A stretch of 64,000 nucleotides of DNA from Amoebophrya sp. A120. Taxonomy: Eukaryota; Protista; Dinoflagellata. Where the stretch lies: contig CAJINV010000017.1 of the NCBI GenBank assembly GCA_905178155.1, forward strand, positions 1,294,722 to 1,358,721, read 5' to 3'. The notes beneath the pieces were generated by a model. The model searched no databases, had not been told where the DNA came from, and worked only from the letters and a program-made list of their open reading frames with translations. Positions 5,001-64,000 of the stretch are shown piece after piece (within the stretch, counting starts at the first letter, position 1; each line of letters begins with the position of its first letter). Both the position numbers and the translations under genes were made by a program.

Positions 5001-8000
5001 AAAGCGGACGAATTGCAGGCGCTTTACGACGACGCGATCAAGGGGACGGACTTGGAAGCGTTGGAGGCGATTCAGCAACGAATTATCGACGAAAAATTCA
5101 AGGAAGTCTACAACGAGGTGGCAGAAAAAGAGAAAACCAAGAAACAAGAAGACCCTCGGGACCAGAGTCAGAAACTGAAAAACCGCGGGCGGACGTTCAC
5201 GTTCGACGATCGCGCGGTAACGAGTGACGAGGAAGACAAGTCTCCTCATGACAATGGCGCTTTCCGAGGAGGAGATCGGTTGGAACAGCGAAGACAAGAC
5301 ATCAAGGAGAAACTACACAATAAGTCGAACTTCGCGTCCGCTACTCTGAAGAAGGACGTCGCGGTCCCTACAATTCGTCCAGTGGTTCCACATAAAACCT
5401 CCGACCAACGCACCTCTACCACAGGCCTGCTCGACGAAGCGGCGTACGTCTATGGCGTTCTCAGCTGCTACATTTTCAACTGTTACATGGATTTGCGACG
5501 CAAGAGTGGCAAAAGTGATAGGGGGGATCTTGCCCTTGCGCGTCTTGCATGACAGATTGGGCACCGATTATCAGCCTCCTGCTTGGCCCTCTGAGAATTT
5601 GCCATGCAAAGCAGCTTCGTGGTGTCGATTCTGAAGGCAATTTTGCATGTAACGGCTTTAGTTGCGCAGTCTGCTAAGCATGACAAAGCATAATCATGTA
5701 ATAGCTGAGAATGTAACGTTTGAGAACGCCATAACCTCCGCGACAGTTCGAACGTGAAGGACGGGGACGCGGACGAGAAGGGCGACTTGGCGGGAAAACT
5801 TGGCGAGTTCTTCCCGGATGACCAATTGCAGCTGATCGGGAAGGCACTGAAAATGTACGAGGAGCACACAGCAGGAGCATCGACAGGGGGGAATCAGCTA
5901 GTAGCTGCACGACCTCCAGAAGGGGAGGCCATTCCCCAAATGAGTAATTTCAGCAGCAACAGCCCGTTGGAAAGCGGGCAGGATGATTACTATGATAATT
6001 CCAACGCGATGAAGAACTTCTACTACGATAAGAATTCGTCGAACAACAACCCGTCAAATTCCAGCCACAACGCCAGTAGCAAAAGCTCCTCCGAACTGGA
6101 CCAACCAGCGCCACCACGACAAGTGAAAAAGCGCCAAACCGTCGCTTCTGTTGCGCCGAAGAAGCATCCGGACCACAACATTTCCTTCGGATTCAAACCA
6201 ACGGCGGTGAAACTCTCCGAGGCGGCGCAGAGTGAGGTGCGAACGTTGAAGGACTTGTTGCGGCCGTCGCCAAGACCAGGTGGGGCGAATTCATCTCGGG
6301 GGAACTCGCCGCGACAGAATCATGTTGGGGTTTTTCAACCCGGGATTTCGTCAGGAACGGTGAGCAAAAGCGTGAGTGACCACAGCGCAAAGAATGATCT
6401 TGCAGTGCAGCCAAGAACTCTGAACTTCAACAACTTCGAGGGGAGTCACAGTCAGACGTACGACCGCAACCTGTTTGTCGCCACCAGTACGGACGAAGAT
6501 CACTGCTCCATCCGGGTTGTAGAAGAGGACAAAGCGAAAACCCAGAAGAAAAAAGAGCGGGGCGAAGAGGAGGAACACGAAAATAATGGATTTGACACCA
6601 GCAAGCTGAATTTTGGGGAAGAGTCAAGTATTCCAGAAATCCACAATTCGGGTCTAGACGTCGACGACGAGGAAGATTTCGCTACTGCAACGAGACGATT
6701 GCACGCGGAGCTGTGGAATGAGCTGGAGAAAGAAGCAGGCGAATTCAATACTAGTGCACCAAGAGGAGCGGGACCAGCACGAGGCGAAGGAGTTATTGTT
6801 GAAAATAGTACTTCTATGCAAACGCCGGCGGACGACGGAGGCCGCGGAGCGAGTGCTGACGAGGAGCATTTTGCGGTGAAAATTGACTTTTCCTCTCCCG
6901 CGCCACCGACGGAAATGAAAGGCTTTCTAGCAGGGGCCCGCGGCGTGGTTGATCCGCTGTCAAGGACGATGGCTGGTTCTTCGAGACCGTTCCCGACTTC
7001 CGCGCCACCCACCGTTGCGAAGTACCCACCGCTACTGGCGACAGCGAGCAGTTGCGGTGCGGCGATCGGAAGTAACTGCAGCCCCCCATGGACAAGTGCG
7101 AAGAACCCACATTTCTACACGACTTCTCCGACAATGTTAACGCATGCGGGAAGAGTGCAGGTTTGTAGTAGTAACCAGATCACGAACTCTACAACTATTG
7201 TGGTGCCTGAGGAAGGGTCGTTGCAGCAGAGAAATCAGGTGAAGCAAAGCAGTATCGGAAACCAAAGCGGAGGAAGATTGATCAGCAAGTACGGCGAGGA
7301 ACAGGTGGACCAAGAGCAAAATCAAGATGGTATAATTGGGCGCGAGGAGAATGGTGCAGCTGTAATTACCGAAAGAACAAATAAGCCAACAGCTCGTGCC
7401 AACACCGTTTCCACCGGAGCGTCCTGCAGCGCCGCGACGAGCAGCAGCTCTACGAGTGGCGGAGTTGTAGTACCCCTGACTGGAGCAGGAGCTACTGGTC
7501 GCCCTGCTGCACATCAACAAGCACAACACAGCAAAAATGTCCCTGCTGTACAACAACCTCCACCACTCGCCGGTCCCTACGTTGCCCCTCCGCCACAGAA
7601 ACTCCGGTACCTACCACCCGGGATTTCGCTTCAACCGCCTCCGCTGCCGAAGTTTCCGCAGAGGCTGCCATCCGCCGATCCGTTGGAGCTGACCAACAGT
7701 TTGGTGGTGACGCGCAACAGCAGCAGCTCCGCGACGAATGTAAGGGTTGGGCCGGCTGGAACTGCAGCGCAAGGCCCCCGCCAAATGGAAATGATCAACA
7801 CTCCCTTTGTGAGCCCGCAGCACCCTGTGTCACGCCAACAGAGTTCTTCTGTTCTGGCTCCTCCGCAGAGAAGACCTTTGTTGTCTACCGCACCACCAAT
7901 GCCCATGACAAGATTTGTCGTGCACAAGCCGCCACCGGTCGCTGCGTCACACAAGGGGACTACTTCGGATCATTTGTACTACACGCCACAACTTCAGCAG

Positions 8001-8294
8001 CAGGAGCAGGTCCCCCCGTTGTATCAGAGATCTTCGTCCGTGCAGTCACTGCCGTCACACTCACAGCCACAGCAATATTACGAGTATCAACACCATCAGC
8101 AGCAGCACGGTCAACATCTCCAAACACCGAAGCGACAGGTAGAGCATCGGGTCAAAAACTCGAGATCGGTCAATGCGCGATCCTTGTCCCCCGGAGTTGC
8201 GTTCGGGCTGCCGAAAGCGTATGCGATGGTTTTGAAAAGTGGGGAGAAACAAGACAAAGAGCAGGGTAGCGCCTCGGTTGAACAACATCACTAG
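2027..8294 (+). CDS. Large multi-exon low-complexity/coiled-coil hypothetical protein
   Basis: ORFs 2027, 2304, 4077, 4758 and 5754 join in frame through GT-AG introns 2300-2492, 3761-4018, 4433-4633 and the TIR element at 5451-5733. Confidence 0.65.
5451..5733. mobile_element. Introner-like TIR element, family A, copy 1
   Basis: TATGGCGTTCTCA...TGAGAACGCCATA with ~39-bp imperfect TIR; flanks acgtc/acctc; same family at 30643 and 59057; removal rejoins ORFs 4758 and 5754. Confidence 0.9.
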
Positions 8295-9389: not shown

Positions 9390-11443
9390 ATGGCAAAAAT
9401 TGCTCCCGCGACCACGGCCGCACCTGAAGAATGGGGCCGGCTGGAAGGCTTTGGTGTCGGTCAGGCCTCCGGTAGAGGAATGCGATTGCTTGCGCAGAAC
9501 AATTTGCTGATGCGGAATCTGGCGCAGCTGAAAAAGCCTCCGCAGGAGCTGCGGGAGCACGAGCAGGAAAATGGCGACGCCATAGTACACCTTCCCGCAA
9601 CCAATGCACTGGCAGCCCAGACGAGCCAGACCATAAGCAACCTCGATGGAGCAGCTGACCTCGAGCCTGATAGAAGCAAGCGACGAAAAATCGAGGAGGA
9701 CCACATTGTGAGTACCTGGCAAACAGGTGCAACCGTCCTCGTCGCTGATGTGCCTTCACGACCGAGCTCCCCAAGCGAAACGGACGATGAAAAGGACGAA
9801 GAGGTGGTAGAGGGACCTGCAGTGACTAAAATCCCCCAAAATGTTGAATCATCCCCCTCTTTACCCCCAGCGACTACTGCAGCAGCAGAGCGCCCATCCA
9901 CATCTTTACAGAAGGAGACTAGTACAACACAACCGGCGACTGACTCCAGCACTGCAAAGAAACCCAGCAAACCGAAACCGACCTCGTCCCGAACAAGCAC
10001 GACATCAGCACCATCATCTGCACACCTCCTCCGCCTCCAGAAGACCAAACCCGCCACCCCGTCGGACACCGTGTCCGGCCCGGCCTTCTACAGCGAGCGC
10101 ACCGGCGACCCGGTGTTCACCTTCGGCAACTACGAGACGTACTACAACTATCGCACGTTCGACGAACGGGTAAGCCGGATAGCGTTTGAATTGGACAAGA
10201 ACTTCTCCTTCACTCTAGAGGGGAAAAACGTCCTGGACATCGGCTGCAATTCCGGGAACGTGACCGCCGTATGGGAGTGTCAGTTTTGAAATCGACAAAG
10301 GTGAAATAATTTGCCATGCATAAAATCAATGGATGCCAGTTAGACCTGCAGTCTGTATTCGGTGCATGACAAATTTTCCCGGTCCTGGAAGCGAGTCTGT
10401 CATGCGGTTTAGGGCAAAAGAGCTGCCTTCTGTCATGCTAGTCAGCAATCCAACTTTTGACCCTTGCCAGGACTAGAATCTGCCTCCCTTGCGTCCTCTG
10501 CAATAAAATCACTTTCTGTATCGCATTTTATGCATTACAAGTTATTTCAACTTTGTCGATTTCAACTCTGACACATCCATACGCCGGGTTCGCCGAATAT
10601 TCGAAGACCGGACGGGTTGTCGGCTGCGACATCGACGAAACCCTAATTGCGAAGGCGTGCTGTAAGTGGCTCCTGCACGGAGATGGGGGACGACGACAGG
10701 GCGGGCAGGAGGATCTTCACACGGCTCAAAGCGACTGGATGTATGGGTCGACTCCAGCATCTTGGTCGACAACTACGTGTTCCAGTTCATCCTACTCAAA
10801 CCTATTCTTCGATGTGGCGAACTTTGCCACGGAGAAAGGCCAGATCCGGTTTTGCAAGGAGAAAGGGTTGCAAATTCTCAAGGACCAGCTGCACTACACG
10901 AGGGAACGACCTGCTGATGTGCGAATAAAGGATACACAAGAAGTCCGACTGGCGACTCCTCCTCATGGCAAGCACCAGAACCACGACGCGGTTGTGCGAG
11001 AATGTGCTCCTTCACCCCCTGGTCCAGAAGGAGTTTATTCGGGTCAACAATTCGTTTCCTTCGACGTGATTGTGGCCTTTTCCATCACAAAGTGGGTCCA
11101 CTATCAGTACGGCGATGCGGGGATCCAGCGGTTTTTCGATCAGATCTACGAGAACCTGAAGCCCGGCGGCTACTTCATCCTGGAGCCGCAGCCCTGGAGC
11201 AGCTACAAGAAAAAGCAGCACCTGACTGCGGACATCAAGCAGCGCGTCGCGGAGGTGAAAATCCATCCGGGCAGTTTCACGCGCTACTTGTCGGGTACGA
11301 TGGAGGTGGGTTTGTGTGAGTCGAAAATAAACGGAGCAGGAGCCTATGGTGGATTCGAGTTGAAGAAGCAAATATCGGGGAAGGAATTGCCGGGGTTTGA
11401 CCGAGATGTGTTCATTTATCAAAAACTTGGGGGAACAAAGTGA
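9390..11443 (+). CDS. Bin3/MePCE-family RNA methylphosphate capping methyltransferase
   Basis: FGNYETYYNYR, SAM motif VLDIGCNSG, VVGCDID, FSITKWVH..YGDAG, LKPGGYFILEPQPWSSY; interrupted by element 10270-10581. Confidence 0.9.
10270..10581. mobile_element. Introner-like TIR element, type G
   Basis: ~44-bp TIR (TATGGGAGTGTCAGTTTTGAAATCGACAAAG... / ...CTTTGTCGATTTCAACTCTGACACATCCATA); perfect cgccg direct repeat; removal gives GCNSGNVTAGFAEY. Confidence 0.92.
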
Positions 11444-12295: not shown

Positions 12296-15168
12296 TTGTG
12301 CCCTCCTTTGGAGCTTACTGTGAGTCGCATTATGCGAAAGCCCGTACCGATCTTTTTCCCTTGGAGTTTGAAAAAGCAGTCGGCTGACAACTACCCTGCT
12401 CTCCTCATCGACAAACTTAATTTGTGGGCTTCGGTCGGGGCTGAAACAATATCGCAGTATGGACGGTCCATCGTGCAGCAGCGGCAGCATTGTTTTCCCC
12501 ACGCCAAGGAGCAACCCTGTCAGAGGCCGCCGGCGTCGAGAATCTTCGCGACCCGCGGCCAGCAAATCAAGCCAATTTATTGCCTCCGCGGTTTCACATC
12601 AGGCCGCTACAACAGGAAGAACAAGACCACGACGAAAAACGCGGGCTACAATTCGATTTCCAATTGGCGAAGCAGACAGAATTGGTCTGGTAGGGGTGGG
12701 GGAGGCTGGGCCTCTTGGAAAAAGACACCCACAGGAACGACACGTACCCATGAAACCAAGGAAAACGAGGACACGAAAAGTAGTTTTGGATCTACTTCAC
12801 AAGACGGGCCGCGTCAACAACAAAATGGTGTTGATTTCCACGACGAGCAGCTGCAAGACGCCGAGGATCCTGCCCTGCCGATCAGCCCGGAGCTCCAGTC
12901 CCACATTGACGACTACCATTTTCTGTCCACCTATCGCAACATGGAGGCCAGCGACTCCCGGGGCGCGAAACTACGAGAAGAGAAGAAAGAAGTGTTCCGG
13001 CTGCGGTTCAGGAAACGGAACGAAAACTACCTGTTCGCGTCCCGTCTGTCGGACGACGAGGTACTGAGCCGGTTGCGGTTCACCAAAAAAGTGTTGGACT
13101 ACTTGGAAAAACCCGGGGGGAACGACAGCTTCCGGGCTTGGGGCCACTACACCGCGCGGGACCACAACAGCGTCGTTCAGAAGTACCGAGATGAAGAAGT
13201 TTTGGCGTCGGATGATCTTGTGGAAATTAGTACGGGTCGTCGTTCTTCATCATCGAGTACTGATGCTGATTTTCTGCCGAGCGATAGGAACACTTCGAGG
13301 ACTAGTACACGTACAGGGAAAACAAGCACAGCAAAAGGCACGTCGGGGCCAACACTTCTTGTCCGTTCCAAAGCCAGCACGACGTCCTCGTCCACACAGA
13401 CGAAAATTCCGCCAATTGTGATCGACGACCGATATCCACAGTAAAGTTTCCCGTACACGTACGAATGCAGGCTCATCTGCATGAGAAAAGATTCTTTCTC
13501 AATCCTACACCTATATACCATGAGGCGAAATTTATTGTGATGCATTTGATTTTCTACGCGTGCAGGAAATTTTTATTGCACAACCGAGAGCACAAGCTGA
13601 TCGCGCTCGCGAACCAGCAGAACTTGTTCGAGCAGACGAAGGAGAAACCAAATTTGATCCCGTTTGAGAAGAAACGGATCCTGACCGCCGACATCGTTAT
13701 CGGCGATCCGGGACGGGAGGTTTACCTGGAGAGAAAAACAGCCGCGGACTTCTGGAGCTCGATCACCGATGCGCGGTTGCACAACCAGCTTGGGAATAAA
13801 ATGGATTTGCTGGAGAGGAGTCCAGACGCCAGGGCCGCGGTGATTTTGGAGGGGTTTTCGACCGCGGAAAGGGACCCGCGGTTGCGCCCGCGGATGAGAC
13901 TGCTGTAAGTTGTACTGGCGACGTACTTGTTTCTCACTTTGTCTGTCAAGAAAAGCCGGTCAACATACTCAGTATAGCGATAAACCCCAAGAATTTTAGC
14001 ACCGCTAGTATTAAGATGAAGGATTCATTATCATTGCTACTTGTGGATTTCTGAATAAAAAAATTTTCTTCCCCCCGTACCAGCAGTACCCAGACCACCC
14101 CTGCCAAGTCGCTTCTTACTTTTCCCATATATGACACCACTCAGGTACGGGAAAATCGTGAATCTGGTGCTCCGTGACCGCGTTCCGATTTTCATGACCC
14201 GGGACCTGGCGGAAACCTACCAAATTCTCGTCGTTATCGCCGAGAACTACTACGAATCTCTAGCCGGACAGCAACCACGAGACTACGTCCACGAAAGGCT
14301 GCACGGGAAAAAGAAGGAGCGCAACCCGGTTTCCGCACTGGAATCGATGGTCAGCATGGTTCCGGGCGTAACGGAACGGATGGCGCCCAAAATTTTGGCG
14401 ACGTTTTTGAAAAACGTCGATCCGAATACCGGGACAACTGTGGTGGGGGAAAGAACTACGGACGCTGCAGCATCTTGTGTCCTTGCGGGCCAAGAAGATG
14501 AAGACCACCCTCTTCAAAGTCAAGAAGTAGAGGTGGCAACGGACGACGTACAACGTAATGAAAGTTGTAGCTCGGTTCCTCCAGCAGAGCAGCAGCGACC
14601 GACGGATATTGAGTCTGAATCTCCTCCACCCGGCGACGAGGTCGACACAGCAACTCCACATCTTCCCATGGCCCAATCTACTTCCACCTCCACTGGTGCT
14701 TCCATGCTGATTTTTTGCAACATTCTGCGGAAGGACGTACTTGCGGTGGACAAGCTCCAAAACCTCGGGCTGAAGCAGATGACGGCGAGGCTACTGGTGC
14801 AACAGCTGGTGGGGGACAACGCACGGAGTTTGAAGCGCGCGAGACTGGTCGAGAAACTCTCCGCGGTCCCCGGCGCTTCAGAGTCGAAAATCAAGCAGAT
14901 TGTCGGGACGGACTATTCCGCGGGAATGCTACGGAAGAGGCTGGATGAGGTGAAGGCGGTTGCTGGAGGGAGGATACCGTCAGCAACCGGGGACGCGGGT
15001 GGCACTGGGTCGGCTGCAGGAGGTGCGTCACTGGCAGCAGCATCAGCTGATTTTGACCTCATCCGCATTACCGCCGCTCGGGAGAAGCTGGAAGAAGTTT
15101 TGGCCGAAGAGGTAGCGAAGGAGCAGTCACTGCAAGGACGTGGGTCCTGGTGTACGAAGGAGGTGTGA
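12296..15168 (+). CDS. ERCC4-domain (MUS81/XPF family) structure-specific endonuclease; start uncertain
   Basis: IVIDDRE (after element removal), ADIVIGD, YLERKTAADFWSSITDARLHNQ (ERK..D motif), two HhH-like segments VPGVTERMA and VPGASESKI; GT-AG intron ~13905-14144. Confidence 0.8.
13433..13582. mobile_element. Introner-like TIR element, type H (degenerate TIR)
   Basis: TATCCACAGTAAAGTTTCC...GGAAATTTTTATTGCACA; perfect accga direct repeat; removal restores ERCC4 motif IDDREHKL in frame. Confidence 0.8.
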
Positions 15169-17550: not shown

Positions 17551-20500
17551 CGCAGCCAACGTACGACTACGTGCTGTTCAGCCCGGCGCTGATCAGCTTT
17601 GTGGGCTACCTGTTTATGCATTGCAAAACTATCGTACTAGTATAAATTGCATTACAAATTTTCTCAAGAACAAAAATGCAATTTGTCATGCTGTTTCAGA
17701 TAGAAAGTTGAATTTGTGTTGCATATCTGCAATTAGTACGAGTGCGATACTTTTGCACAGGATACTGTTGCTGCTGATCGCCAATTTCCTCGCAATTTTC
17801 TGGGTTCGCGCGAAACAGGAAAAGGCAGTGAAGGAGATGAAAATAAACCAGAAAAACAAGGTTGACCATGACCACCTCCACGACGACGAGCTCGGAAAGC
17901 CTGGCGGGGGTAGGATCTTCGCATCGGGAGAGGACGAAGATGGCGACGGTGTCGCAGCTGCTGCTGACAAGAACAGCACGACGACGTCGTCCTCCGACGG
18001 GACGACGAGTATTGAACATTCTCCGACCGCTCCGTCGATCCAGTTTTACGGACGTACGAAATGCTGGTACGGGCAAACGGTCCTATCCTAAGTAAAAACG
18101 TCCCCACACCAGATTTGTAATGCAGATTTGCAAAGACAGGAAGACTTGTAATGCGCACTCCCATGAGATCCATTTCCAGTCGTGTTTTGGAATTTGTGAT
18201 GCTGTGAACAGGATAAGGAGACAAATCTGTGCTGCGGCTGCACTTGCTAACCTGCACTACACTGCAGAGTGCAACTTGTCATGCGTGACTCACAAAACTC
18301 CTAGGCTTGTGTTGCAAAATCCCCACTCTGACTCTGGTGCGGGTACGTTTTTACTCAGGATAGCTCCTCTACTTTCTCTACGGGTTTTACGCGTACTCGC
18401 AGGTGCTGATGCTGTGTCTCTGCTACAGTATCATGAACGCCCGCGAGCTGTCGACCTTCCTGGACTTTATGGCGCAATTCCCGGCCGGGAACCCGAACTT
18501 GCAGGGTTTGTCGAACGGGTTTTTGGGGATGAATCTTTGTGTGGACCACAGTGAGTACCCGAACACCGGGGACAACCTCCCCAACACGGTGAATTTCTAC
18601 CCGCTCGAGCCGACCACCTGCGAGGGCGAATTGTTGTCCGACAGTGCGGTCTACTACCGTCACATCGAGGTCATGAACTACTACTGGGTCCTCACGCTCG
18701 CATCGTTGCTCTTCTGGCTGTATTACGGCAAAATGATGAGGAACCTGCTCCTGTGGAAACCCTGTGCTTTGGAACAGTGTAAATCGGTGCTTGTGTGGGA
18801 CAAGAAGACCACGACGACGACCGGGCAGCAGCGAGACAATGTTGAAAATTATGCGACGATGAAAAACAAGAAAAAGAAAAAGCCGGTCGCTGATTTTTTC
18901 AATTTCTACGAGCAAACGAAGATCGTCAAGGTGCACGTTGCGACGCCGGAGTTTGGAGGTGTCGTTTCTGCCCCTGCCGGCAGTCGTGCCGCGGCTGCTT
19001 CTGCGTCGCCGGCGGAGGTTGTAGGGACGACCTCGACATCAAGTGCGACAACTGTGGGTCACGATTTTTTGGAAGAACAAGTCGGAAATAACCAAAAGCA
19101 AGACAATTATTCCGGCACAGTGTACTACATTACGCACGACTCGACTCGATTTGTGTACGACCACGAGAAGAAAAACTTCGTCGACCCGCAGGACTATGGA
19201 ACTGACATGTTTTGGGTGCGCGACTTGTACAAGGAGGAGACAGCGTTGAGGCAGTTTGAAGGAGCTGGTATATTGCTTGAAGTGATTGTGATATTACCCA
19301 TAGCCATAACCGTATGCATATCATGCCGATGCTATCAATCAAATGCTGTATTTCATCCTTCTCCTTTTGTTTTTTTTTACTTCCGATGACTCATCGGATG
19401 ATGAGAAAGAGCGACTCATCGGCGATGAGTCACTCTTTCTCATCATCTGGTCGTATTGGTTTCTATGCTCGTTGCAGCTCCTTAACCTTGTTGATTTCTA
19501 ACTAATCAAAAAACCCTATTAGGTTTCACTTTCCACACCACCCCCGCCACGACTTCCCTGAAGCAAAAGGTGTTCGGGAAAAACGTCCTAGCCGCGATCG
19601 AAGACAGGAAGTCCTGGGGCCAGCATTTTTCGAAGAATTTGCTCACCCTCCCCATGGTCATCACGCTGCTCGGGAACTACTACGTCTTCCTGAATTTGAT
19701 TCTCCCCGCGATGTTTTTCCAGATCGTGATCGCCTTTTACTTCGCGATTTCCTCGGCTTGTACCGACTTCAAGGAGCAGGAACAGATCTACCAGCTTCTC
19801 GGACACAGCATGGACGGGCAGTTTGTGACGATGAAACGGGCCTTTTATGCTGCTGGTACTTCTAAAAATGAAAGCAGGAAGAACTTCTACGACCACGAGC
19901 AGCAGGTCGAGGTGACAGACCTCCTCCCCGGGGACGTCTTCGTCCTGCCGGATAAGAACAAGGAGAACAAGCCCTTCACGATCCCGGTCGATTGCGTACT
20001 CCTCACCGGGTCCTGTTCCGTCAACGAAGCCTCCCTGACCGGCGAGGCCGTCGCGATCCAGAAGTTTTCCGTCGAGGAGGCCGTGCTGGAGAACGTGACG
20101 GAAAAGCAGTCTGGTGTGAATTTGATCACGGAAAAAGCGAAGAAAAAGTACATGCTGTTCTCCGGGGTGTCCGTGCTGGAGTGCGGGCAGGCGAAGGAAA
20201 ACCTCTGCTTGGTGCTGAAAACCGGGGCCGCCACGAAGAAGGGGGAGCTGATCAAGATGCTAAACAGCGAAGCGAGCGGCAATTCCAGCGAAAAAGTGTT
20301 CAACATCGAGAACGACAGCGGCAACTTGATGCTGTTGCTCTTCGTTTATGGATTGCAAAAGTATCGCAGCACTCGTATAAATGCATTACAAATTTCCTCA
20401 GCATGAGAAACAAAATTCTTGACAAAAAGATTTGTAATGCGTGGCTGCAATACGAGTACAATACTTTTGCACAGGATATCGTGATCACCTTTGTCGGCAT

Positions 20501-23500
20501 CACGCCCTACATGCTGCAGCTCATCCTGCAGGGGACCTTTGTGCAGCAGCGGGCGATTGTGATTTTCCGGATCATCAGTAATTTCGTGACGTTGCTCTCC
20601 CCCATCTTGTTGTCCGCCATGCAGGAGGCCAGTCGCGTGGGGTGCATATGGATTGTAAAAATGTCTGGGTCTGGAAGGTTGGAACTTGTAATGCTAGCTT
20701 TCCATAGCTAGAAAATCTGTATTGCATAACCAACAAAAGTCGCAGCCTCTTTTGTCATGCTGACACGCAGTTTCTCATGCGGATTGCCTATGAGAGAGCG
20801 TTTTGGGAAGTTGTCATGCCGGACTCAATTCGGAAGTGTTTTCATCATGCACATTTTAGCATCACAAGTTTCCAGACCCAGACACTTTTGCATTTGATAG
20901 CGCAAGGCCCTGAACCAGAGGCTGGTGAACGCGCGAAATCTATCCTGAGTGAAAACGTCCCCACCCCATAGTTGTCATGCAGATCTGCATGCTCAGAGTG
21001 TGTGTCATGCGGCTCTCCATGAGAGGCATTACCTAGTGGCGTTTGGGAATCTGTCATGCGGTAATCAGGATGACAGACTGGATCTGTGATGCGTTCGAAC
21101 TAGCTAGGCACGACTACACTGCGTCGCCAAGCTTGTGATGCGTGAGTCCCAAAAATGCTCGATTTGTCTTGCCAAAGTCCCAACTTGACTATGGGGTGGG
21201 GACGTTTTTACACAGGATAAAATCCGAAAAACTTGCCCGTCGCCGGGGCGTTGACCGTGCAGTGTTTTGACAAGACGGGGACCATTACGAAAGACGGGCT
21301 CGAGTTGGAGGAGTGTGAGCTGAAAATGCTGATCAAAAACGACGAGAACCTTCTGGAAGAGGACAACAAAAACGCCACTTATGCGGAGAAGATGGATCAG
21401 CAAGCCGCGCAGGGAGTAGTTGTGGATACCACTAACACGACGACCACCAATCTGCTGGTGGGGCAAGAACACGATCAGCAGCAGGAGCTTCTCCACAAGA
21501 CATCAAATGCTGACCCGACTATGCTGCTACACACCGCGCTGTCCACCTGTCACACCGTTTCGAAACTCCAGGATGGGACGTTGGTGGGGAACCAGGTGGA
21601 GCTGGAGATGTTGAAGATGGCGATGGAGAAGATTCCCGGGCTGTCTTTCTCCAAGACGGAAGACTTGACCGACGGAAGCGGCAGCTGCACGGACTACTAC
21701 TGCCACGACGAGGAGTCCTCGTTTGGAGGTCAAGAACATCATCTTCCCACTGCTCATCCTGTTCACAAGCAGCGCCGCTTCTGCCGCACGGTGCGCCAGT
21801 TCGAATTTGACCAGCACGCGCAGTTACAGTCGTGTCTGGTGGAGATGGAGGGGGACAAAAATCACAGTACCAATACCAAGAAGAACTATGCCGTCGACCA
21901 GCATGACATCAAGCAGAAGCCAACAATTCTCTTCGTGAAAGGTTCTGTGAAGCGCATTGTCGCAAAGTGCAGGCCGGAATCCGTCCCCGCCGGTTTTGAG
22001 CAGTCGGCGGAACAATTGGCCATGGAAGGATTCTACCTAGTCGCGATGGCGATGAAAACTGATTTAGTTGCTCACAAGGACGATAAAGAAGATCAACAAC
22101 AGCCGTCAGTACTAGACCTCTACCAGGTTCCCCGCGAACATTTAGAGCAGAACCTCACGCTCCTCGGGTTACTGAAGTTCCGCAACGAAATCAAGCCGGA
22201 TTCGCGCCACGTAATCGAGACGTTGAAAAACGCCGACATCGCCACCCAGATTATCACGGGCGACAATGTTTGGGCGGGGGTGCATATCGGGCGGGAGAGC
22301 GGGATCATCGCCGCAGAGAAGGACTTGGTGCTGGTCTTGGATCTCGAACACCACCACTGGCACCACAGCCCAGGAGGTGGTGCTGGCGGTGGTGCAGTGC
22401 AGCAAGAATTGTTGCATCAGAGCTGTACTTCTAATCATCTTCTGAAGCTGCACCTGATCAAGCCGGAAGTTGCTACGACGTGCAGCAATAACAAATCGGA
22501 AGGTCTTGAAGAACTTCCACTGGAAGACGAAATGAACGAAGTTGAAGACCTGTTTCAAGACGGTAACAAGCACTGGAGCTACTACGAACACGGCGACGAT
22601 TTGAGTGATAAAGGTGATGAAGCCGCGCTGCTCTCTTCGAAACTCACCCTTTTGTCCGATTATAATGGATGTGGTCCTCATGTTGATCGTGGGGATGAGC
22701 TCCATTATCACTGGAAAACTTTACCGGAACAGGAGCAAGCGGAGGCGCTTTTCAAGGAGTTTTTGAAGCAAAAGACGACTTTTCTACTCGCGCAGAACAA
22801 GGACAAAAGTGCTAAGAGCGCTGTCGTGGACGAGAAGAAGAAGCAGATCGTGACGGCGTTCGAACTGAAGAGCGGCACTGTTGTGAAATTTGTCGTGACG
22901 TTTGACGCGTTCAAGAAACTTCTGGAGGTTTCGGAGCAGAACATGGACGAAAATGCCGAGAATGGGAGCAGCAACGGTGATAAAAACGCTAACGCAGGAG
23001 CAGAAGATTATGCCGACATGATCAACCACAGTAGCGCCGCTGAGCGCGATCCCGAGGATCCCGAGGCTGCGCCGATGAGCAAGAGCGTGGATTTCTGGGC
23101 CATGTTCGTCAAGGCGCAGATGAAGAACTGCAACAGTAAAGATTTTTTTTCCAAGTCTAATAACGCGGCTGGCAAAAAAGGCACAACTACCGTCAAACAG
23201 CAAGAGAAGGAGCTGCAGCAAAGTTTCTCCCTGCTCTCCCTCCTGTATCCGAATATCGCGGTCCTCGGATCGATGACGCCGGTCGGGAAAGTGCAGGCGG
23301 TCGAGTACTGGCAAAAGGAAAACCTGTTCGGGAAGCAGGTCATCGGCATGTGCGGAGACGGGGGGAATGACTCTGGCGCGGTGAACGCGGCGGATATGGG
23401 CTTGGTTTTGGGGAACGACGACGCGGAAGAATTGTTCGCGCCTTGGAGTCCACGTGCAGAAGTTGCTGGATCTAGTAGTTCGAAAAACTTCTTACACGAA

Positions 23501-51300: not shown

Positions 51301-54300
51301 AGCACTGAAGATCTTCCTCCTGCTGCTGGCGCTGGTAATAAAACTGGAAGCACATCAGCAAGTGCCAATATGAGTGGTCCACAGCATTCGCGACCACACT
51401 CCCCTGCTCGTCCGCAGCCGCCAACACCAACGCAGGCCCTACTTCCGGTTTTTCTCACGACAGCATTGTCCTCTTCCGCCCAGCTTCCTGCCTCCGTCCA
51501 ATCCGACCGCCTGGTCCACACGGACGCGGCAACCCGGCACCCAAACAGCCGCATGCTTGAGTCGCTTGACCACGATCGCGACGTGGTTCGGGCGAGGTTT
51601 GACAAACTTCGTACGGATTTCCAGGCGGAATTGCAAGTGTGCAGGGATAAAGACGCAGGTGGTGGAGCTCTTCGCTTTACTTCTTCCAAGAAAAAACAAT
51701 GGGTGGATAGCTCCTGTGGAGGTCTGCTGTGTCTCACTCCGCTTCAGAAAGTTTTCGTCTTGTCCTTCGCGGTGCAGGTTAGCGAACAGTTGGTGGACCA
51801 CCTGCTTCAGAAAACGGAATTCGAAACGCGAAGCGCGCCACCTTATACAGGGCCGCTGACGGGCATAGCTACAACAAATCCGTCTTCCCGTGCGCCATCC
51901 TCGACATACAACAGCAAACAATCGAAGTCGACCGCGTCTTCTTCATCGACTTTCGACTCGCTCCCGCAAACCGGCACCATGCGGACCTTCCTCCACCTTA
52001 TCACAGTGCGTGCGCGGCACTGCGTCGTCGAGGAATTTTCCAAGTGCCCCCAGGATTTGAAACTGGCGTTGCTGCACGACGACATCTTTTCCTTGCAAAT
52101 CCCGCAGGAGCTGGCGAGCTTCACCTTTATGCGTCGGAAATCGAGATCGAAGACCGTACCTCTACCAACAGGAGCCAGCAGCGCAACCGCGATGTTGACG
52201 GCGGCCGAGTACGACGCTGCGCGAAGCGGTGGTGCTGCAGCTGCCTCAGGAATTAGTACTCAGCCGACATCAACTTTTTTCGGCAGCGTGTTCGGCGGCA
52301 TCCTTGCGCCGGTAGTTGTGCCTGAAGCGGTGGACGATGTTGTAGTATCCGACGAGCAGACGCCGAATAGCAGGACTAGCGGGACTAGTACAACTGGGAC
52401 AGCGCAACAAAGTACCATCCACCGGATTCAGCTCACCCCGATGGATGAGTTATTCCGAATCGCCACCGGAAACAACATCGCTGCTTTGACCTTGTGGCAA
52501 AGGCTTTCCGGGACGTCATTTCTCCTTTTGCTTGGCACACACCACCCGGCGGTGGTGGCGATGCGACTTGATGAGAAGTTTGAAAAAGACTTCGCCTTGA
52601 ACCCAAACAATTCCTCGAGCTTTCATTCGGCAACATCCGCCGGACCGTCGACCGCAACCGGAGCTACAGCGCTGAGTGGTAGAACTGCTGCAAATTACAA
52701 CAACCCCGGGAACTTTTCCCTGGATCGGAACCTTCTCACGACCGAAAACGAGCGGAACAAGCTGGAGGAAGAAGAATTCCTGGCCGCTGCAGCGGAACTA
52801 CAACAGAGCGGACTTCTGGATGCAACGGGAACAACAGAGACGAGTCTGAGCGGAACAATCCAAAAGTCCTCTCAGCTGCAGTCTCTCCTCCTGAAAAAAG
52901 TTGTCAATGCCGCCAACTCTTGCGTCGTAGACAACAGCGGGTCGCTACGGGTAAGTTTGTTTTCCGAGACCGACGCTTCGTCCTCGTTTCTAACCGCCGG
53001 GAAGATGGTTAGTGAGGGCGAGAGGTGCCATTTGTCCATGTTGATGCGGAAGCCGTTGCTGGCCACCGACGTGGAACACGAGTGCTGGGACACAGCCAGG
53101 GAGATGCTTCTAGCCGGGTTGAATTATCGCGCCCCGTCCTCGTCGTGTTCGTACGACGAGCGCAGCAGCTTCCTGGCCACCACCGCGAGAGGAGCTGCCG
53201 GTGTTTCTATCGCCCCAGCACAACTTCTTCGAGTATTAAAAAGCGGCGAGATCATGTCCAATTTCAACCCACCGCCAGGAGCAGGGGAGACAGTATTAAA
53301 CGGGACGCCGGGGGCTACAACTGCAACTGGACGGGTCGTTGACGGTCCGCAGGACGTTGTCGTGGATGACCAATCTGCAGCTACGCCTAGTAGTGCAGCC
53401 CGCTCACGGCCCCCGCGGGGAGCTTATCTGCGGATGAAAGTGAACAAGAGCAGCCCGCCGAGCAGAGGTCCAGAGGAGGACGAGGTGCTCGAAGGGAATG
53501 AAAACGCAGCTCCGACGTCATCTTTTTCAGAAAGTAGTAGAAGTAGAACTGCACGTGCACCTGGTGTCCACCAACACGCTCCTCCATCTTCCGCGATCCT
53601 TGACCAAGCGATCAATTTCGAGCAAACTACGGCTGTGAAGAAGCTGAAAACTGTCCCCGAAGTGATCACAATGTCGTGCGCGCACAAGACGGAGCCGCTG
53701 TACGCCGTCGCCTGCGATTCGGGGCCGCTGGCATTCGTGCGCTCGTTTGCGGAGGAAGAATTGGAAATCAGTTTGGACACGTCTGCGCTGGTGAATGCGG
53801 GGAGTGGCAGTTTTGGAGCCGGCAGTGCTGCAGTGGCGGCTTCTTCTAGAGCCGGCGGCGTCAACCAGCAAGCAGCGTTTACATCCCCGGAGAGGCGGCG
53901 GGCCGAAGAAGAGAGTGCTGCAGCAACAACGTCGCAAGGTGGACCGCCAAATGCTGGTGTAAGTGGTGACAACTTGAAGAGGATAACTTCAACACCAACC
54001 CTTAATGGCTCTTCGTCGTCCAGTGGGGCGGTGGGGGTCGCAGCTGGTGCTGGACCAATCTCTCTGTCCCCTCCCGCAGACCTATCCCCAACTACCAGCT
54101 ACTCGGCAGGTGCTGGTGCTGTAGCGAGCGCAGGCTCGTCGCCCGTGGACACCGGCGGAACGTTGCAGCACGGCAAGAAGACGCAGTCGATACCTTCTTC
54201 AACGGCCTCAACTTATCAACAAGTGCAAAAATGTCTGGGTCTGGAAGGTTAGAACTTGTCATGCTAAATCTGAATGATGCAAAAATCTGTGTTGCGTGAG

Positions 54301-55698
54301 TACCAAAAGCTGTCCGCTTTTGACCAAGTTGAGAGGGAGTTTCTCATGCAGGAAAGGCATGATAGAGACCTCAAAAAATCTGTCATGCTGGGTCTCGCAT
54401 TCCAGACCTCATGGGTCATGGAAAACCTGCATCACAAATCTTGCATTCTTGCAGACCCAGACACTTTTACATTTGATACAACTACGAAGCAAGCCAACGC
54501 CTACGTCGCCACGCAGCGGATTTCTGTACTGCAGTTCCAGGGCGACAGAATCGTTGTCGGAACCCGAGGTGCGGTGGATTCGCCAAACGTGTGTGTTTAC
54601 CACTATGGCGCTGGGATAGAAAGCTTCAGTAAGAGAAGTTCTGCTCGTCCAGATGTTGACCGACAAAGTGCGATGCCGTCAGGAGCGGTTGCTAGTACTG
54701 ATCCCAGCTCAACAAACAGACACAACAACACAGTGTCCCAACGCCCGTACCTGACCTTCTCGACCGAGTCCGCGCACAGCCAACTTCTCGGTGGGGACTT
54801 CTGTTCCGAGCAGTGCCTGGTAACGTGTGGAGCGCCGACGGAGACGACGTACTTTTCCACACCTTTGTCCTCTTCAAGCTCGGCAGCTATCCAACCGGGC
54901 AGCTACAACTACGCATCCAGTAAAGAGGAGTTCCACAGCTCTTTGGGAGTGTGGGACCTGCGCATACCGCCAAGAGCCAGGCTCGTGCTCCGAGACAAGA
55001 TCTCGCTGCGCGGAATGTCCAGCACGTCCGCAGACGCATTGATCAACACCAGGGTGGCCTGCTTGTGGACGAAAGATGCGGGGTCAGGATCTTGTACTGT
55101 TTCATCATCGAATAGCAGCGTAGCCCACACCGCTACTGGAGAGATTATTCCTTTCGATCAGCACGGAACAAGTGGGTTTTCGGCGATTCGAAGGCCGATG
55201 GTACAGCAGGACTTCTCTTCAGACCTGTTTTTCGTGGACCACCATGCGTCTTCGACCAATCTGCCCTCGACCGCCTCTCTGAATTATGGCACCAACGGGA
55301 CAACATCATCATCCTCTTCGAACCTTTCCTCCAACGACAAAACGCTTCTAGTCACCTCGCGCAGTGGCCACCTGCGGTGGTTTGACCTGCGCAACCAGAA
55401 GTACGTGCACAAGGCGAAATCTTCGCACAACGGGTCCGCGGTGAAGCAGTTGCTGGTTTTTGAGGACTTGAAAAATTGCGTGACCATCGATCATAACGGG
55501 AACCTGCTTCGTTGGGTCTGCCCCGATCTGGCGAGGCGTTTCACGGACTGCTTTTGCGTCGAGAAGAAACAGCAACTACACGCGTCGACGAGCTTGTTGG
55601 TGCAAAGGACCGCCGTGGTGTCCTCCGCGCAAGTCGTCGGTCCGAGACATTTCGTGACTACTGGGCTGGATGGAGCGTTTTACTTGCATTGCTTCTGA
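42328..55698 (+). CDS. Rav1/DMXL (RAVE / Rabconnectin-3 alpha)-like giant protein, ~4300 aa
   Basis: Rav1_C-like motifs DIVWALHS, KLGFWL, AIKNAYELIRQKRYMLAATFFLLAD..DAV; WD40-like C-terminus (LGVWDLR, LRWFDLR, VTTGLDG); GT-AG intron 49247-49423 and element 54214-54478. Confidence 0.8.
54214..54478. mobile_element. Introner-like TIR element, family C
   Basis: TATCAACAAGTGCAAAAATGTCTGGGTCTG...CAGACCCAGACACTTTTACATTTGATA; perfect caact repeat; removal joins ORFs 49486 and 54274 (STASTTKQANAY). Confidence 0.92.
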
Positions 55699-58126: not shown

Positions 58127-60864
58127 ATGAAACAAAGTCAACTCTTCTCCTCGCTTCTTTACCTAAACAGCCTGTACCATCCTGTGTTCGCCGAAGAAGA
58201 AGAGACGTATCGCTGTGTGCGTTTTCAGAAGACCGGCGGCTGCTCACCGGATGGGAAGGAGGAGGACAAGAAGAAGTGCGCCGATGAAATCTCGTCGGGG
58301 GAGAGCGGATACTGTGTGTGTAAGACGCAGAGAGGCTTGTTCAAACGCATAAAACGAGAAACCTGCGACCACGCACCCTTCACCTGCGACTATGCGTGTG
58401 CAAGGTAGTACTCTCTTCATGCGAAATTCGATGGCGACGAGTCTACCTCTACTTCTTATGAGTGGTGAAGATCATGCGCTTTCTTGAAGATAAAATTCAC
58501 GCATTACAAGTACAACCCGCCCTGTTCTCCCCGCTTGTCTTAGTGCTTTCGATTCGTTCTAAGTTGACACCATGTGTTTTTGATAAGTGCTCGACATGAA
58601 CAACATAAAATCATTCCAAGGCACACCGAGTATACCTGTAAGCACTTTCAGCCAATCGAACAGTGTACGGAGTTACAAAACGCAAAACCAACAAAAGGTA
58701 AACTGAGTTCTTATTCTTTTGCGCGACTTCGTCTTCGTAGTGCACCACTGGAGCAGCTGCTGCAGTAAAAAACTTTCTTTATGCAAAAGTAAACATTTCG
58801 GTGCTACAAGTACAACTGCTTCTAGGACCACTTTATGACAAAAGGAGAAACATCCACTACAGAAACGCTTTCCTGCGACGAGGTTCCTCCTGCAGAGAAG
58901 CCTGGTTACTGCGAGTGCGGTAACGGGCGACAGATTATGCAGCCGGGGTGTTTCAACCCGAGTATGTCGGATATGAAGTCCTGTACGGACCTTTGCGCCA
59001 CGGGCCCCACCCCGTACGAGGACCTGGGGACGCACCAGCACGCCACGGACGCGGTTTATGACGTTCTCAAGCGTTACATTCTCAACTGTTACATGAATTT
59101 GTGATGCAAGAGCCGCAACAGTCAAAGGTGCAAAAGTTGCTGCTTTCGCATCACAGATTTGGCACCGATTTAGGTGCTGTGTAGCCCTTCGGAGATTTGT
59201 CATGCGAAGCAGCTTTCTCATGTACCGGCTCAAGGTAGTTTTGCACGACAAATTCATGTAACAGTTGAGAATGTAACGTTTGAGAACGCCATACGGTTTT
59301 AAAGCAGAACTTCCGAAAACTCAGTTTGAAGCACCACCCCGACAAGGGGGGCGATAAGGTGAGGTTCACTGCCATCCGAGAAGCCATGGACGTGCTATCC
59401 GATTCCAAATTGAGAAGGGTTTACGACATGGGTGGCTGGGATATGGTACGTTTATTTTGGCATTGTTGACAAAAGGAAAAGCACAACAGGCGAAGAGGAA
59501 GTAGTTGCTGTCGGTGTTGCCATGCAGATTTTTGATTTGCATAGTGTCTAGTATTAACATGAGCATCACTGACATTGATGACTCCACTGACTTTGGCGAG
59601 TCGAATCGTTAACCTCACACTTATTTTTTCCAGGTAAGCAAGGCCAAGCAGGATAAGCTGGAGAAGGGCCCGAACAAGGAGCACACGATGCACTTAACCC
59701 TCGCGCAGATGTACACGGGCACAACCAAATCGATGCACGTGGGGCGGCGGCTCCGGCTCTGTCGGGGGTGCGACAACGAGAATAACAAGTCCGTGTTTTG
59801 CTCGAAAACTTGCAAGAAAAGTATCAAATGTAAAAATGTCTGGGTCTGGAAGAATGCATGTTTGTCATGCTTGTCTGGCATGATTCTTAAATCTGTCATG
59901 CACGTTACCCAAGAGCTCCATTTTTCTGTGATGCAAAAACGCAGTTTGTCATGCAGAATAGGCAACACCTAGAAGCTCAGAAACTTGTCATTCTGAGCCA
60001 GCACTTATGGCCTCATCATGAGTAGACGCCACCCAGCATCACAAGTTTCCAGACCCAGACATTTTTACATTTGATAAAAATCTGCCCCAAGCAAATCGAG
60101 TACAGGTATATGATCCGCGGCGGCATGCGGTACCAAATGCAGCACGAGGTGGAGTCAAAGCACAAGTGCCGAGCCGAGAAAGGGCCACTGGAAGTGGAGG
60201 TGCCGGCCGGAGTGCGAGACGGGGAGGAAATCAAATACGCTGGGGAAGGAGACCAGAGTGAAAGTCAAACGCCGGGAGATATTGTCTTCAAGGTATTCTG
60301 GATGATATTACTTTTATGTTTTCTACAGATTTTGTAATGAAATTGAAGCTGTTGAAATCGTATTTCTATTTTGTAACCGTATTTTTTTTTACTGTTGCTG
60401 CTCTCACACACCCCGTCTGGGATGATCTTCATTGGGAGTCAACACAAGATTGCATCGCTGACGGGTCCTAGAATTTCTGCACCATTTATTTTCGAAAAAA
60501 ACACCAACAATTTGAGGTGAAGCAAATCTACGAGAAGCAGTGGTCTCGCAAGGGGATTCATTTGTACCGAACCCTGGAAATATCCCTGAAAGAGTCCCTG
60601 CTTGGTTTCGACAAAACCATCACGCACCTGGACGGTCGGAAACTGCAGGTCAGGAAGGAAGGGGTCACCGAGGCCAACAGCCGGATCGTTTTGTCCGACG
60701 AGGGCATGCCGGACAAGCGAACGGGGTCCACCGGGAAGCTAGTCATCACCTGCGTCATCAAATACCCAACCGCGCCGCTTTCTGCCACGTTGCAGGAACA
60801 AATCGCGAGGCTCATGCCCGGACCCGGCTCCATCGTCAAGGCCAAAAAGCGTGAGGAATTGTAA
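58127..60864 (+). CDS. ER-luminal DnaJ/Hsp40 (ERdj3/DNAJB11-like) with N-terminal Cys-rich repeats
   Basis: Signal-peptide-like start, J domain PYEDLG...LKQNFRKLSLKHHPDKGG, C-terminal DnaJ domain (PGDIVF, ISLKESLLGF..ITHLDGR, EGMP), ends REEL. Confidence 0.88.
59057..59293. mobile_element. Introner-like TIR element, family A, copy 3
   Basis: TATGACGTTCTCAAGCGTTACATTCTCAACTGTTACATGAATTTG...CAAATTCATGTAACAGTTGAGAATGTAACGTTTGAGAACGCCATA; cggtt repeat; removal restores ATDAVLKQNFRKL. Confidence 0.93.
59822..60076. mobile_element. Introner-like TIR element, family C
   Basis: Perfect 30-bp TIR TATCAAATGTAAAAATGTCTGGGTCTGGAA; flanks aaaag/aaaat; removal gives TCKKICPKQIEY. Confidence 0.92.
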
Positions 60865-61961: not shown

Positions 61962-64000
61962 ATGGATCGTATATCCCCCGTGGTGAAAAAGCACGGGTAT
62001 GTCCCGCTGAAAAAAGTGGGCTCTGGATCGTTCGGACAAGCATGGCTCGTAGGGCAGGATGAAGACGGGAAGCGGCAAAACTACGTCTGCAAAATGGTAT
62101 TACTTTTGACTAGCAACATCAAGAGAAAAAAAAAATATCGCATGATGAAAGCCAAAACTTCAATTATCAGTTGAGGTGTCTGCAATGTCGTTTTCTGGAT
62201 TGATGATGCATGATCTTCCGTGCGACATCTATCCTAGCTTCGGCAAATGCGCACGAAAATGTGAAAGGCGAATCTGAAATTCTTGTCAATGTTTTTAGGC
62301 TTCTTGTTGGTGCACGAAATTTGTGATGTAGATCGGCGTTTGAAAACAAGATCAAGATCTACGATGTATTGTGTCTACAAAGCGGCCCTGTTCATCGAAC
62401 CTATCCCACTTTCCCTATCCCTGTCAGATCGACATCAGTCGTTGTAGTGCCAAGGAGAAGAAGGACGCTTTGCACGAAGCTTCCGTTTTGAAAACGCTAC
62501 AACATCCGTACGTGGTACGGTATAAGGAGTCTTTCCTCGAGGACGGATGGCTCTGCATTGTGCAGGAATACTGCGAGGGTAACAAGTATTTTTGACAATT
62601 TTGCTTTGAATTTGATGTCGCGTGGAACTAGAAGTAGAAACTGCACCAGCTCCTGCTTCTGCATAAGGGGCCTCTGTTCAGCTGCAGTTTCAGATTGTGC
62701 AGGGTAAAGTCTTTGAAACAAAAAAACAGGCGGCGACATGTACCAGCGAATACAAAAAGCGAAGAAAATGCACCAGCCCTTTTCTGAGGACCAGATTGTT
62801 ATCCCGGAAAGAAGACCCATCCCCATTCAATTCGTCATGCAAAACATCCATAAAACCCACTATTTTTCATGCAAAAAAAGGATGTGGATGGGTGTTTTTT
62901 CCTGGATAAATGTCCGGTGGTTTACGCAGTGCATGCTGGGGCTGAAGTTCATCCATGACAAGAAGATTTTGCACCGAGATTTGAAGTCGAGTAACTTCTT
63001 TCTATCCAAAACCGGCGACATAAAGATGGGCGACTTTGGAATCGCAAAAGTGCTCGAATCAACGGCCGCAGTGGCGAAAACACAGATCGGTAAATTGAGT
63101 CATGATGTCGTGTAGGATGAATAGTGATGATGAAGTTAGTTGATGTCACAGGAGGTGGTACAAGTGCCACATGTTGGATTGAACAAGGTGCATGTGGTGG
63201 TGCATGGAGGTCGTAGTTTTCGTCCGTTTCATGATGCTGTCAACAACATGCATGACGATTTATTGCAAATGATGACGAAGCTGAAGCAGAACGCAAATAA
63301 TTTTCCGAAACCATATCAGGTACACCGTACTATCTGTCGCCGGAAATTTGCCAAGAAAAGGCGTACGCCTGGCCGAGTGATATTTGGGCGATGGGTTGCA
63401 TTCTGTACGAAATGTGCTGTCTCCGAGTACCGTTCGACGCTGCGGATTTACGAGCGCTGGTGCACAGGATAACAAGAGGACCGAGCCCCAGTTTGCCGGG
63501 ACAGTAAATTCTATTTGACATTGCGAATGTCGTTATCGGAGTAGATGACTTATTGTGATACATTCAGAGCCACAGGAATTTTCATGCGCAGAAGAGCGTG
63601 CTTCTTGCGCTTCAAAAATCAACATAAACGTACCGCAAAACGTCAACGAAAATTAAGTTTTATACCATTACCATGACCCACAGCTTCTCCCCCCAGTTGC
63701 GGCAACTCGTGACTGATATTCTCGTGAAGGACCACACCAAACGGCCCACGGCGGAGAAGATCCTTACCCGGTCCATCCTGGCCGACCGCGTGCGGAAACT
63801 GGAGGCAGAGGACACGGGCGCCGGTGGGCAGGAAAAGCAGGAGGGAAGCAAGAAGGACGACATCTCGCTCATCCAGTCCAAATTGGAGCAGGGCGGGAGC
63901 TATGCAACATTGCAAAAGTATCCAACTAGTGTAGATTGCATTACAAATTATCTCAGCATGATGGCGAATGAAGTTTGTAATGCTGTTTTAGCTTTGGAAG
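61962..64000 (+). CDS. NIMA-related (NEK) Ser/Thr kinase, 3' end beyond window
   Basis: [54 protein letters not shown]; several GT-AG introns. Confidence 0.92.
62800..62908. mobile_element. Introner-like TIR element, family D, copy 2 (109 bp)
   Basis: TATCCCGGAAAGAAGACCCATCC...GGATGGGTGTTTTTTCCTGGATA; flanks attgt/aatgt; removal gives EDQIVRWFTQ. Confidence 0.92.
63901..64000. mobile_element. Introner-like element, family E, truncated by window end
   Basis: TATGCAACATTGCAAAAGTATCCAACTAGTGTAGATTGCATTACAAAT matches left ends at 17615 and 20347. Confidence 0.75.

Follow-up and report, generated by a model that had tools for sequence, protein, structure and literature searches.

Introners of the algal parasite Amoebophrya sp. 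A120 were described by Farhat et al. (2021, PMC7789003), who report 29,850 copies in 1,954 families with a mean length of ~240 nt, whose inverted repeats start with TAT, whose borders are overlain by direct repeats of 3 to 5 nt (with a 5-bp example in Fig. S19 of that paper), and whose removal without GT-AG is supported by RNA. That paper found no transposase in A120 and argues against general transposase-mediated mobilization there. More recently, Gozashti et al. (2025, PMC12130899) listed A120 introner family 38 as a Ginger-like terminal inverted repeat (TIR) DNA element with a 5-bp target site duplication (TSD), TA/TA termini, and open reading frames (ORFs) similar to Copia/Gypsy, with mixed TSD lengths and splice mechanisms among the other families (58 A120 rows in supplementary file 8); the mode of exit from mRNA is put down as open in the literature. 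Here, we analyze small hairpin-ended elements, likely transposons, that lie inside genes in a 64,000-nucleotide stretch of A120 (assembly GCA_905178155.1, contig CAJINV010000017.1, positions 1,294,722 to 1,358,721; hereafter the window), and that begin with TAT and end with ATA or ACA. The feature is real and already published, in the very strain of its description, and the link to Amoebophrya introners drawn in an earlier annotation from the sequence alone (the preliminary description) is right and stronger than it was put, since these are the published elements of strain A120 itself. What we add to this is a fixed cut that ignores both the flanking repeat and GT-AG, leaving 1 nt before and 4 nt after the element inside the intron (the 1+4 register), at four sites in one sample. 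In the literature on Amoebophrya and Syndiniales introns that was covered, with subscription journals and bioRxiv supplements lying outside, neither a fixed register nor a mechanism of excision is stated in any title or abstract opening. With our confidence evenly balanced, we read the elements as miniature DNA transposons that are cut from A120 transcripts in the 1+4 register, probably by a relaxed host spliceosome and likely guided by pairing of their ends.

Removal is seen in contigs of one sample whose status as RNA is guessed (runs X1 to X4). Among the joints listed, these contigs skip exactly the element plus 5 nt at 8/8 sites (24212, 30643, 31692, 34375, 34982, 35545, 36365, and 40911; elements are named by their first position), and at four further sites (17615, 18084, 20347, and 29317) contig pieces break off at the repeat. 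The same contigs also skip six GT-AG introns, which is the behavior expected of spliced RNA. Run X5, on the other hand, behaves as genomic DNA and retains the elements, with one 23-kb contig crossing five of them unbroken (record 15, 30853-37000) and the remaining contigs extending ~25 to 30 nt into elements without branching at the repeat; its 17,229 records on 20 kb are concentrated on elements, indicating that these are repeated in the genome. The preliminary description had proposed non-autonomous TIR elements that are precisely removed from transcripts, a proposal against which retention in transcripts would count, and the listed joints together with the five elements kept in X5 bear it out. 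Runs X1 to X4 are possibly the data underlying the published work and are for that reason not counted as independent of it. One low-depth contig of X4 (40726-40876) keeps a canonical intron, pointing to pre-mRNA or DNA in that run. The raw-read runs X9 and X10 contributed 122 reads and 1 read, all on element copies (mostly 90 to 95% alike) and none on host genes. In X9, ~120 raw RNA reads at 20654-20696 carry a family D copy with other flanks, and none of them falls on genes of the window; we read them as a retained or unspliced family D copy from a different locus, and the sample apparently does not belong to this strain.

The position of the cut is fixed by the four joints that are unambiguous (34982, 35545, 36365, and 40911), for which the sole fit (4/4) is an intron that opens 1 nt ahead of TAT and closes 4 nt beyond ATA, and the other four joints are compatible with the same register. 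Non-GT-AG joints make up 7 of the 13 in the contig comparison, and all 7 have the 1+4 build, 34375 included; the register had been written down as a prediction before the joints at those sites were examined. Repeat identity at the exact joints is 0/5, 3/5, 1/5, and 1/5, respectively, and a single register at such identities indicates that the cut is not guided by the repeat, and it makes template switching unlikely. The flanking direct repeat, which the preliminary description had tied to removal, is thus not needed for it. In the 1+4 register, 4/22 introns begin with GT and 0/22 end with AG, which sets them apart from U2-type GT-AG (or GC-AG) introns; the donor bases U+2 and A+3 are present. 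At 31692, cutting one base past ATA would give the intron an AG end, yet this option goes unused. End-to-end pairing with fixed spacers, rather than the repeat or GT-AG, is likely what sets the cut.

With respect to the elements themselves (Table 1), all 17 starts of the preliminary description carry TAT, each with a partner end 109 to 381 nt downstream, and its truncated 18th copy is confirmed (start 63901, cut by the window end); its count fell short by 5 older elements with decayed repeats (0-2/5). The TAT...ATA ends it gave hold at the left in 17/17 and at the right in 15/17, with 13433 and 24212 ending in ACA instead, and TAT at the left end with A[TC]A at the right is found in 22/22 elements, decayed-repeat ones included. 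The 5-bp flanking repeat claimed for each of the 17 is exact in only 9 (4/5 in 7 and 3/5 in 1), and across the full set it is 5 bp with at least 4/5 identity in 16/22 elements, the cut falling within it. TIRs, put at ~18 to 45 bp, are present, but ungapped ones reach 57 nt and the tips are frayed in 13433 and 54214. TAT..A[TC]A pairs that have inverted ends and whose flanking repeat agrees at 4 or more of 5 positions number 16 in the window, versus 2 in 50 shuffles. AAA occupies element positions 11 to 13 in 9/17 (the published A120 form is TAT, 7 variable bases, and at least three A). The elements fall into five window families (A to E) of 2 to 4 members, plus singletons; 30643 and 59057 are 79% alike in reverse orientation, both in plus-strand genes. 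The elements share a subterminal motif (TGT[ACG]ATGC or the reverse), which is found at 50 places in their 5,013 bp and at 6 places in the remaining 58,987 bp of the window. Two candidates were not accepted as elements, namely 8832-9156 and 33487-33662; the second, a TATC..GATA pair with a short inverted repeat and a flanking repeat of 1/5 identity, is kept unspliced in two contigs and is either a decayed element no longer removed or a chance pair.

Predicted pairs between the first and last 45 nt amount to at least 22.7 in 21/22 elements. Contigs read through 122 TATS..SAYA pairs (12,662 covered bases), only 3 of which reach at least 22.7 pairs, indicating that the end triplets are not sufficient. 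Nor does pairing at the very tip (+2 with -5) seem to be needed, since next to none is predicted in four old elements that have RNA confirmation and still carry TAT and ATA. As modeled, it is likely long-range pairing that brings the ends together and the terminal triplets with fixed spacers that set the cut.

The transposon character of the elements can also be followed in a second assembly (A120 or a relative), in which 131 loci matched a 30-nt element end exactly and 130 were read (536,247 bases); none of these loci overlaps the window and no DNA orthologous to it was found, with element copies up to 94.5% identical. An exact 5-bp flanking repeat is present in 157/192 short inverted-repeat pairs there, compared with 22 of 192 for 2 bp and at most 3 of 192 for lengths of 3, 4, and 6 to 10, and with the end triplets left free, TAT..ATA is recovered in 233/290 pairs. 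Paired family D copies are 240 to 303 nt long in 115/117 cases. With TIRs, a constant TSD, short and uniform length, and no coding content, the elements have the features of miniature inverted-repeat transposable elements (MITEs) and work like MITEs that double as introns. As the preliminary description had stated, no transposase is seen in the window, neither in the 49 of 72 ORFs of at least 150 codons that were searched nor in 20 exon pieces; the second assembly likewise yields none in the 110 longest of 138 frames of at least 230 codons (0.54 Mb). Long copies with the same TIRs and a coding ORF had been suggested as a place to look, and the longest ones (972 and 2,940 nt) show no transposase. 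The 972-nt copy (L026, 5001-5972) has perfect family D ends, an exact 5-bp repeat, and a longest open frame of 86 codons. The 2,940-nt element (L058, 6264-9203) has family E ends and an exact 5-bp repeat and lies inside a minus-strand gene. Its sequence includes short tandem repeats, the terminal CCCATCCA-type motif repeated in an array, and, near 7662-8794, an inverted-repeat element nested within it, and a Pfam scan of eight frames gave no match. Other long inverted-repeat pairs are mostly the ends of two separate copies, and TGT..ACA pairs, mostly inner sub-repeats, were dropped as elements. No phage record resembling family D was found. The mobilizing enzyme was earlier called unresolved, whereas a putative candidate type (integrase-like, family 38) is in print.

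If the elements are miniature transposons removed by a relaxed spliceosome, an integrase-type transposase encoded elsewhere would bind to the shared subterminal motif as well as to the inverted repeats and would insert the elements either way round, duplicating 5 bp. Once in the pre-mRNA, the ends of an element are predicted to pair and so bring the junctions together, upon which the cut would remove 1 nt, the element, and 4 nt, as at the four exact and four compatible joints. One duplication copy's worth of sequence is lost in this way, so that the exon is restored whatever the target. TAT would supply U+2, A+3, and U+4 of the host GTAY donor; G+1, AG, and a consensus branch site would not be read, and the 3' cut would be measured from the terminal ATA. 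Among RNA-joined canonical introns, GTAY is the start in 6/6 (31268-40863), with the TAT of the elements falling on +2 to +4, and none of the six has G at +5, which fits the reported lack of U1 snRNA: according to Farhat et al. (PMC7789003), A120 keeps 83/89 spliceosomal proteins and U2, U4, U5, and U6, and U1 snRNA was not detected. For strain A25, the same paper gives nine predominant motifs that begin with TT and repeats that begin with TTA, a start that, going by these letters, would likewise supply U+2/A+3, with the offset shifted. No support emerged for a fixed branch A at -5 or -7, a possibility that we considered, both positions varying at the 3' ends.

Several observations weigh against this reading. 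The register rests on 4 sites in one sample, in contigs only, whose RNA status is guessed, and no transposase was found in the window or second-assembly frames searched. In A120 family 2, the 9,716 copies tabulated by Gozashti et al. (PMC12130899) include 6,681 with T at +2 and 6,598 with A at -2; A at -2 would be unexpected under a strict 1+4 cut, and a real second register would account for it, as would annotated borders that had shifted, within exact repeats, between 1+4 and 4+1. Element 34375 is removed despite little predicted end pairing (9.9), and in young copies the predicted stem covers +2 to +7. Orientation was assigned by a coding model trained on the window (184/322 second-assembly copies; 13/14 calls right in a control on the 22 window elements), and among the 184 oriented copies the first intron base before T is A in 62, G in 52, C in 43, and T in 25, with an AG end in only 14; selection for G+1 or AG, which was considered, is thus not seen in young elements, while ordinary host introns keep GT-AG. 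YTRAY lies within the last 60 nt in only 8/22 elements, in scattered places. Finally, terminal-base variants among the oriented copies show only a weak asymmetry, with 2 of them 5' and 8 of them 3' (P = 0.10).

Part of this evidence bears on an alternative that shares the transposon origin and the 1+4 code and that we consider a serious contender, if short of an even chance, namely that a separate, non-spliceosomal machine reads the paired terminal triplet and fixed spacers, as proposed for Euglena. The cut is blind to bases +1, -2, and -1, there is no clear branch consensus, the elements work in both orientations, and TAT and A[TC]A are retained in 22/22 even where the repeat has decayed, all of which speaks for such a machine; against it stand the exact seat of TAT on +2 to +4 of the host donor GTAY and the predicted absence of tip pairing in the four RNA-confirmed old elements, and we know of no enzyme of this kind. 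A precedent is the Euglena code N3-CDG..CHG-N5-6, with strict spacers, for which the authors favor non-spliceosomal factors (PMC12501133), and the undetected U1 snRNA in A120 (PMC7789003) points the same way. A more far-reaching version, which we hold only tentatively and as somewhat less probable still, is that A120 has a second, non-spliceosomal intron system with the code N1-TAT..ATA-N4 closed by end pairing, convergent with that of Euglena, together with an integrase-derived superfamily of transposons in which the 1+4 spacers match the 5-bp duplication in length; if true, insertion in either orientation would be erased from mRNA without a scar.

The remaining explanations dispense with the fixed register or with splicing. 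Guidance by the direct repeat through repeat-to-repeat joining, with the variable cut position that the figure legend of the original paper suggests, is improbable, given that four sites at 0-3/5 identity share one register. An origin of the joints in template switching by reverse transcriptase, over hairpins with short repeats at their sides, and not in splicing, has very little to recommend it: a hairpin with a direct repeat is a known signature of such artifacts and these genes are covered by contigs only, with no raw reads, but the four joints have no shared letter on either side, the register is constant, and retained elements would break the MPP-beta, DnaJ, and ATPase frames. Just as remote is removal from DNA, with transcripts made from a cleaned copy, as for the internal eliminated sequences of ciliates, which the TA-rich ends and flanking repeats resemble; the genomic X5 contigs cross five elements unbroken and enter others without branching at the repeat, with the qualification that contigs can drop rare forms.

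At the level of host genes, deletion of the element plus 5 nt gives, at 22/22 sites, a frame that runs open for 25 or more codons to either side, in agreement with the earlier claim that deletion restores the frame, except that 29317 and 62800 have an open frame even when the element is kept. These two family E copies (109 + 5 = 114 nt) are open throughout, and their retention would give a 38-residue insert with no stop. All five diagnostic motifs named earlier (IDDRE, AVLKQNFRKL, LSDILG, YGRRIP, and EDQIVRWF) are obtained on deletion. A Pfam scan of 20 exon pieces gave matches to Bin3, ERCC4, E1-E2 ATPase, Peptidase_M16, DnaJ, and protein kinase, with 7 pieces lacking a match at E <= 1. In the P-type ATPase gene, removal across four elements joins a 2,100-codon frame, and in the MPP-beta gene, the Peptidase_M16 profile is matched from 1 to 93 before and from 97 to 142 after element 29317. 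One MPP-beta exon matches a protein of Amoebophrya sp. A120 at 100% identity, and the predicted 964-aa product, with three elements and two GT-AG introns removed, is identical to the A120 protein P0003, showing that the window belongs to A120 and that the public annotation already takes out these three elements. The A25 MPP-beta protein is colinear at LSDILG and YGRRIP, at the protein level, which does not show the state of the DNA. All Pfam-matched genes in the window are on the plus strand, like the reported co-oriented clusters of Amoebophrya. A very long plus-strand gene at 42301-55698 (frames of 2,367 and 1,615 codons, Rav1p_C match) has one element in 13 kb, a density far below that at 17 to 41 kb. 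A 25-bp near-perfect hairpin with a 1-nt loop (19397-19447) lies within a predicted canonical intron of the ATPase gene.

Table 1. Positions in the window of the elements and of the MPP-beta host gene, with the identity of the 5-bp flanking repeat, the host, and the contig evidence (L, element length)
Feature	Positions	Strand	Repeat	Host	Contig evidence and remarks
Element, family A (with 30643, 59057)	5451..5733	+	4/5	ORF without Pfam match	
Element	10270..10581	+	5/5	Bin3/MePCE-type methyltransferase gene	
Element, ACA end	13433..13582	+	5/5	ERCC4-domain gene (IDDR/E split)	
Element, family B (with 20347)	17615..17764	+	5/5		X1 contig piece ends 17609, repeat edge
Element, family C (with 20941)	18084..18362	+	4/5		X1 contig piece begins 18365
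Element, family B	20347..20478	+	4/5	P-type ATPase gene	X1 contig piece ends 20341
Element, family D (with 35545, 54214, 59822)	20647..20899	+	4/5	P-type ATPase gene	
Element, family C	20941..21219	+	5/5	P-type ATPase gene	Preceded by 36-nt exon
Element, ACA end	24212..24424	+	5/5	P-type ATPase gene	X1 joint 24201-24420, skip 218 = L+5
MPP-beta host gene	28087..32187	+			3 element introns and 2 GT-AG introns
Element, family E (with 62800)	29317..29425	+	5/5	MPP-beta, splits Peptidase_M16	X1 piece ends 29311
Element, family A, reverse of 59057	30643..30878	+	5/5	MPP-beta	Joint 30637-30879, 4/4 runs
Element	31692..31969	+	4/5	MPP-beta (YG/RRIP split)	Joint 31689-31973, 4/4 runs
Old element	34375..34703	+	2/5		Found from RNA joint; joint 34373-34708, 2/4 runs
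Old element	34982..35129	+	0/5		Intron 34981-35133; unambiguous joint 34980-35134, 3/4 runs
Element, family D	35545..35925	+	3/5		Intron 35544-35929; unambiguous joint 35543-35930, 3/4 runs
Old element	36365..36562	+	1/5		Intron 36364-36566; unambiguous joint 36363-36567, 3/4 runs
Old element	38081..38279	+	1/5		Removal inferred from frame only
Old element	40911..41128	+	1/5		Intron 40910-41132; unambiguous joint 40909-41133, 2/4 runs
Element, family D	54214..54478	+	5/5	Long gene, downstream of Rav1p_C frame	
Element, family A	59057..59293	+	5/5	Splits J domain	
Element, family D	59822..60076	+	4/5	DnaJ gene	Perfect 30-nt inverted repeat
Element, family E	62800..62908	+	4/5	Protein kinase gene (EDQIV/RWF split)	
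Element cut by window end	63901..64000	+			Resembles family B by eye

A fixed 1+4 register makes the question of excision directly testable, and a fixed spacing from the element ends would narrow how the elements are removed. It would also settle thousands of ambiguous A120 intron borders in annotation, and it explains how a transposon can be tolerated anywhere in coding DNA.

Compared with the A120 introners of Farhat et al., the elements described here share the organism, the TAT inverted repeats, the direct repeats, the many families, and the non-GT-AG removal. The difference is that the cut position is called variable in the text of that paper and is fixed here, independently of the repeat, at 4/4 exact sites; moreover, the paper argues against general transposase mobilization, whereas the uniform 5-bp TSD across families here argues for one enzyme type. 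Family 38 of Gozashti et al. is listed with the same 5-bp TSD and TA/TA termini, but is described as ~810 nt long with coding remnants, in contrast to the non-coding window copies of 109 to 381 nt. The Ginger2/TDD transposons (Bao et al. 2010, PMC2836005) are similar in having terminal inverted repeats, in that TDD-4 and TDD-5 make 5-bp TSDs, and in that two window copies have one TGT-type end. Ginger elements, as characterized there, have TGTNR ends and mostly 4-bp TSDs, in contrast to the TAT ends here; the 5 bp here fits TDD-4/5 only, and in the window TAT is found at 22/22 left ends and ACA at 2/22 right ends; we do not file the elements as Ginger because their ends are TAT, not TGT. The nonconventional introns of Euglena (Nomura et al. 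2025, PMC12501133) resemble them in lacking GT-AG, in having a paired terminal triplet at fixed spacers from both cuts with the longer spacer on the 3' side, and in a suspected MITE origin. The Euglena code, N3-CDG..CHG-N5-6 followed by a purine, belongs to an unrelated lineage and was tested there by knock-in, whereas N1-TAT..A[TC]A-N4 is only observed here. Because the codes differ, the elements are not filed as Euglena-type introns, although they work alike, and Amoebophrya would join Euglena as a second lineage with an intron defined by paired ends and spacer length.

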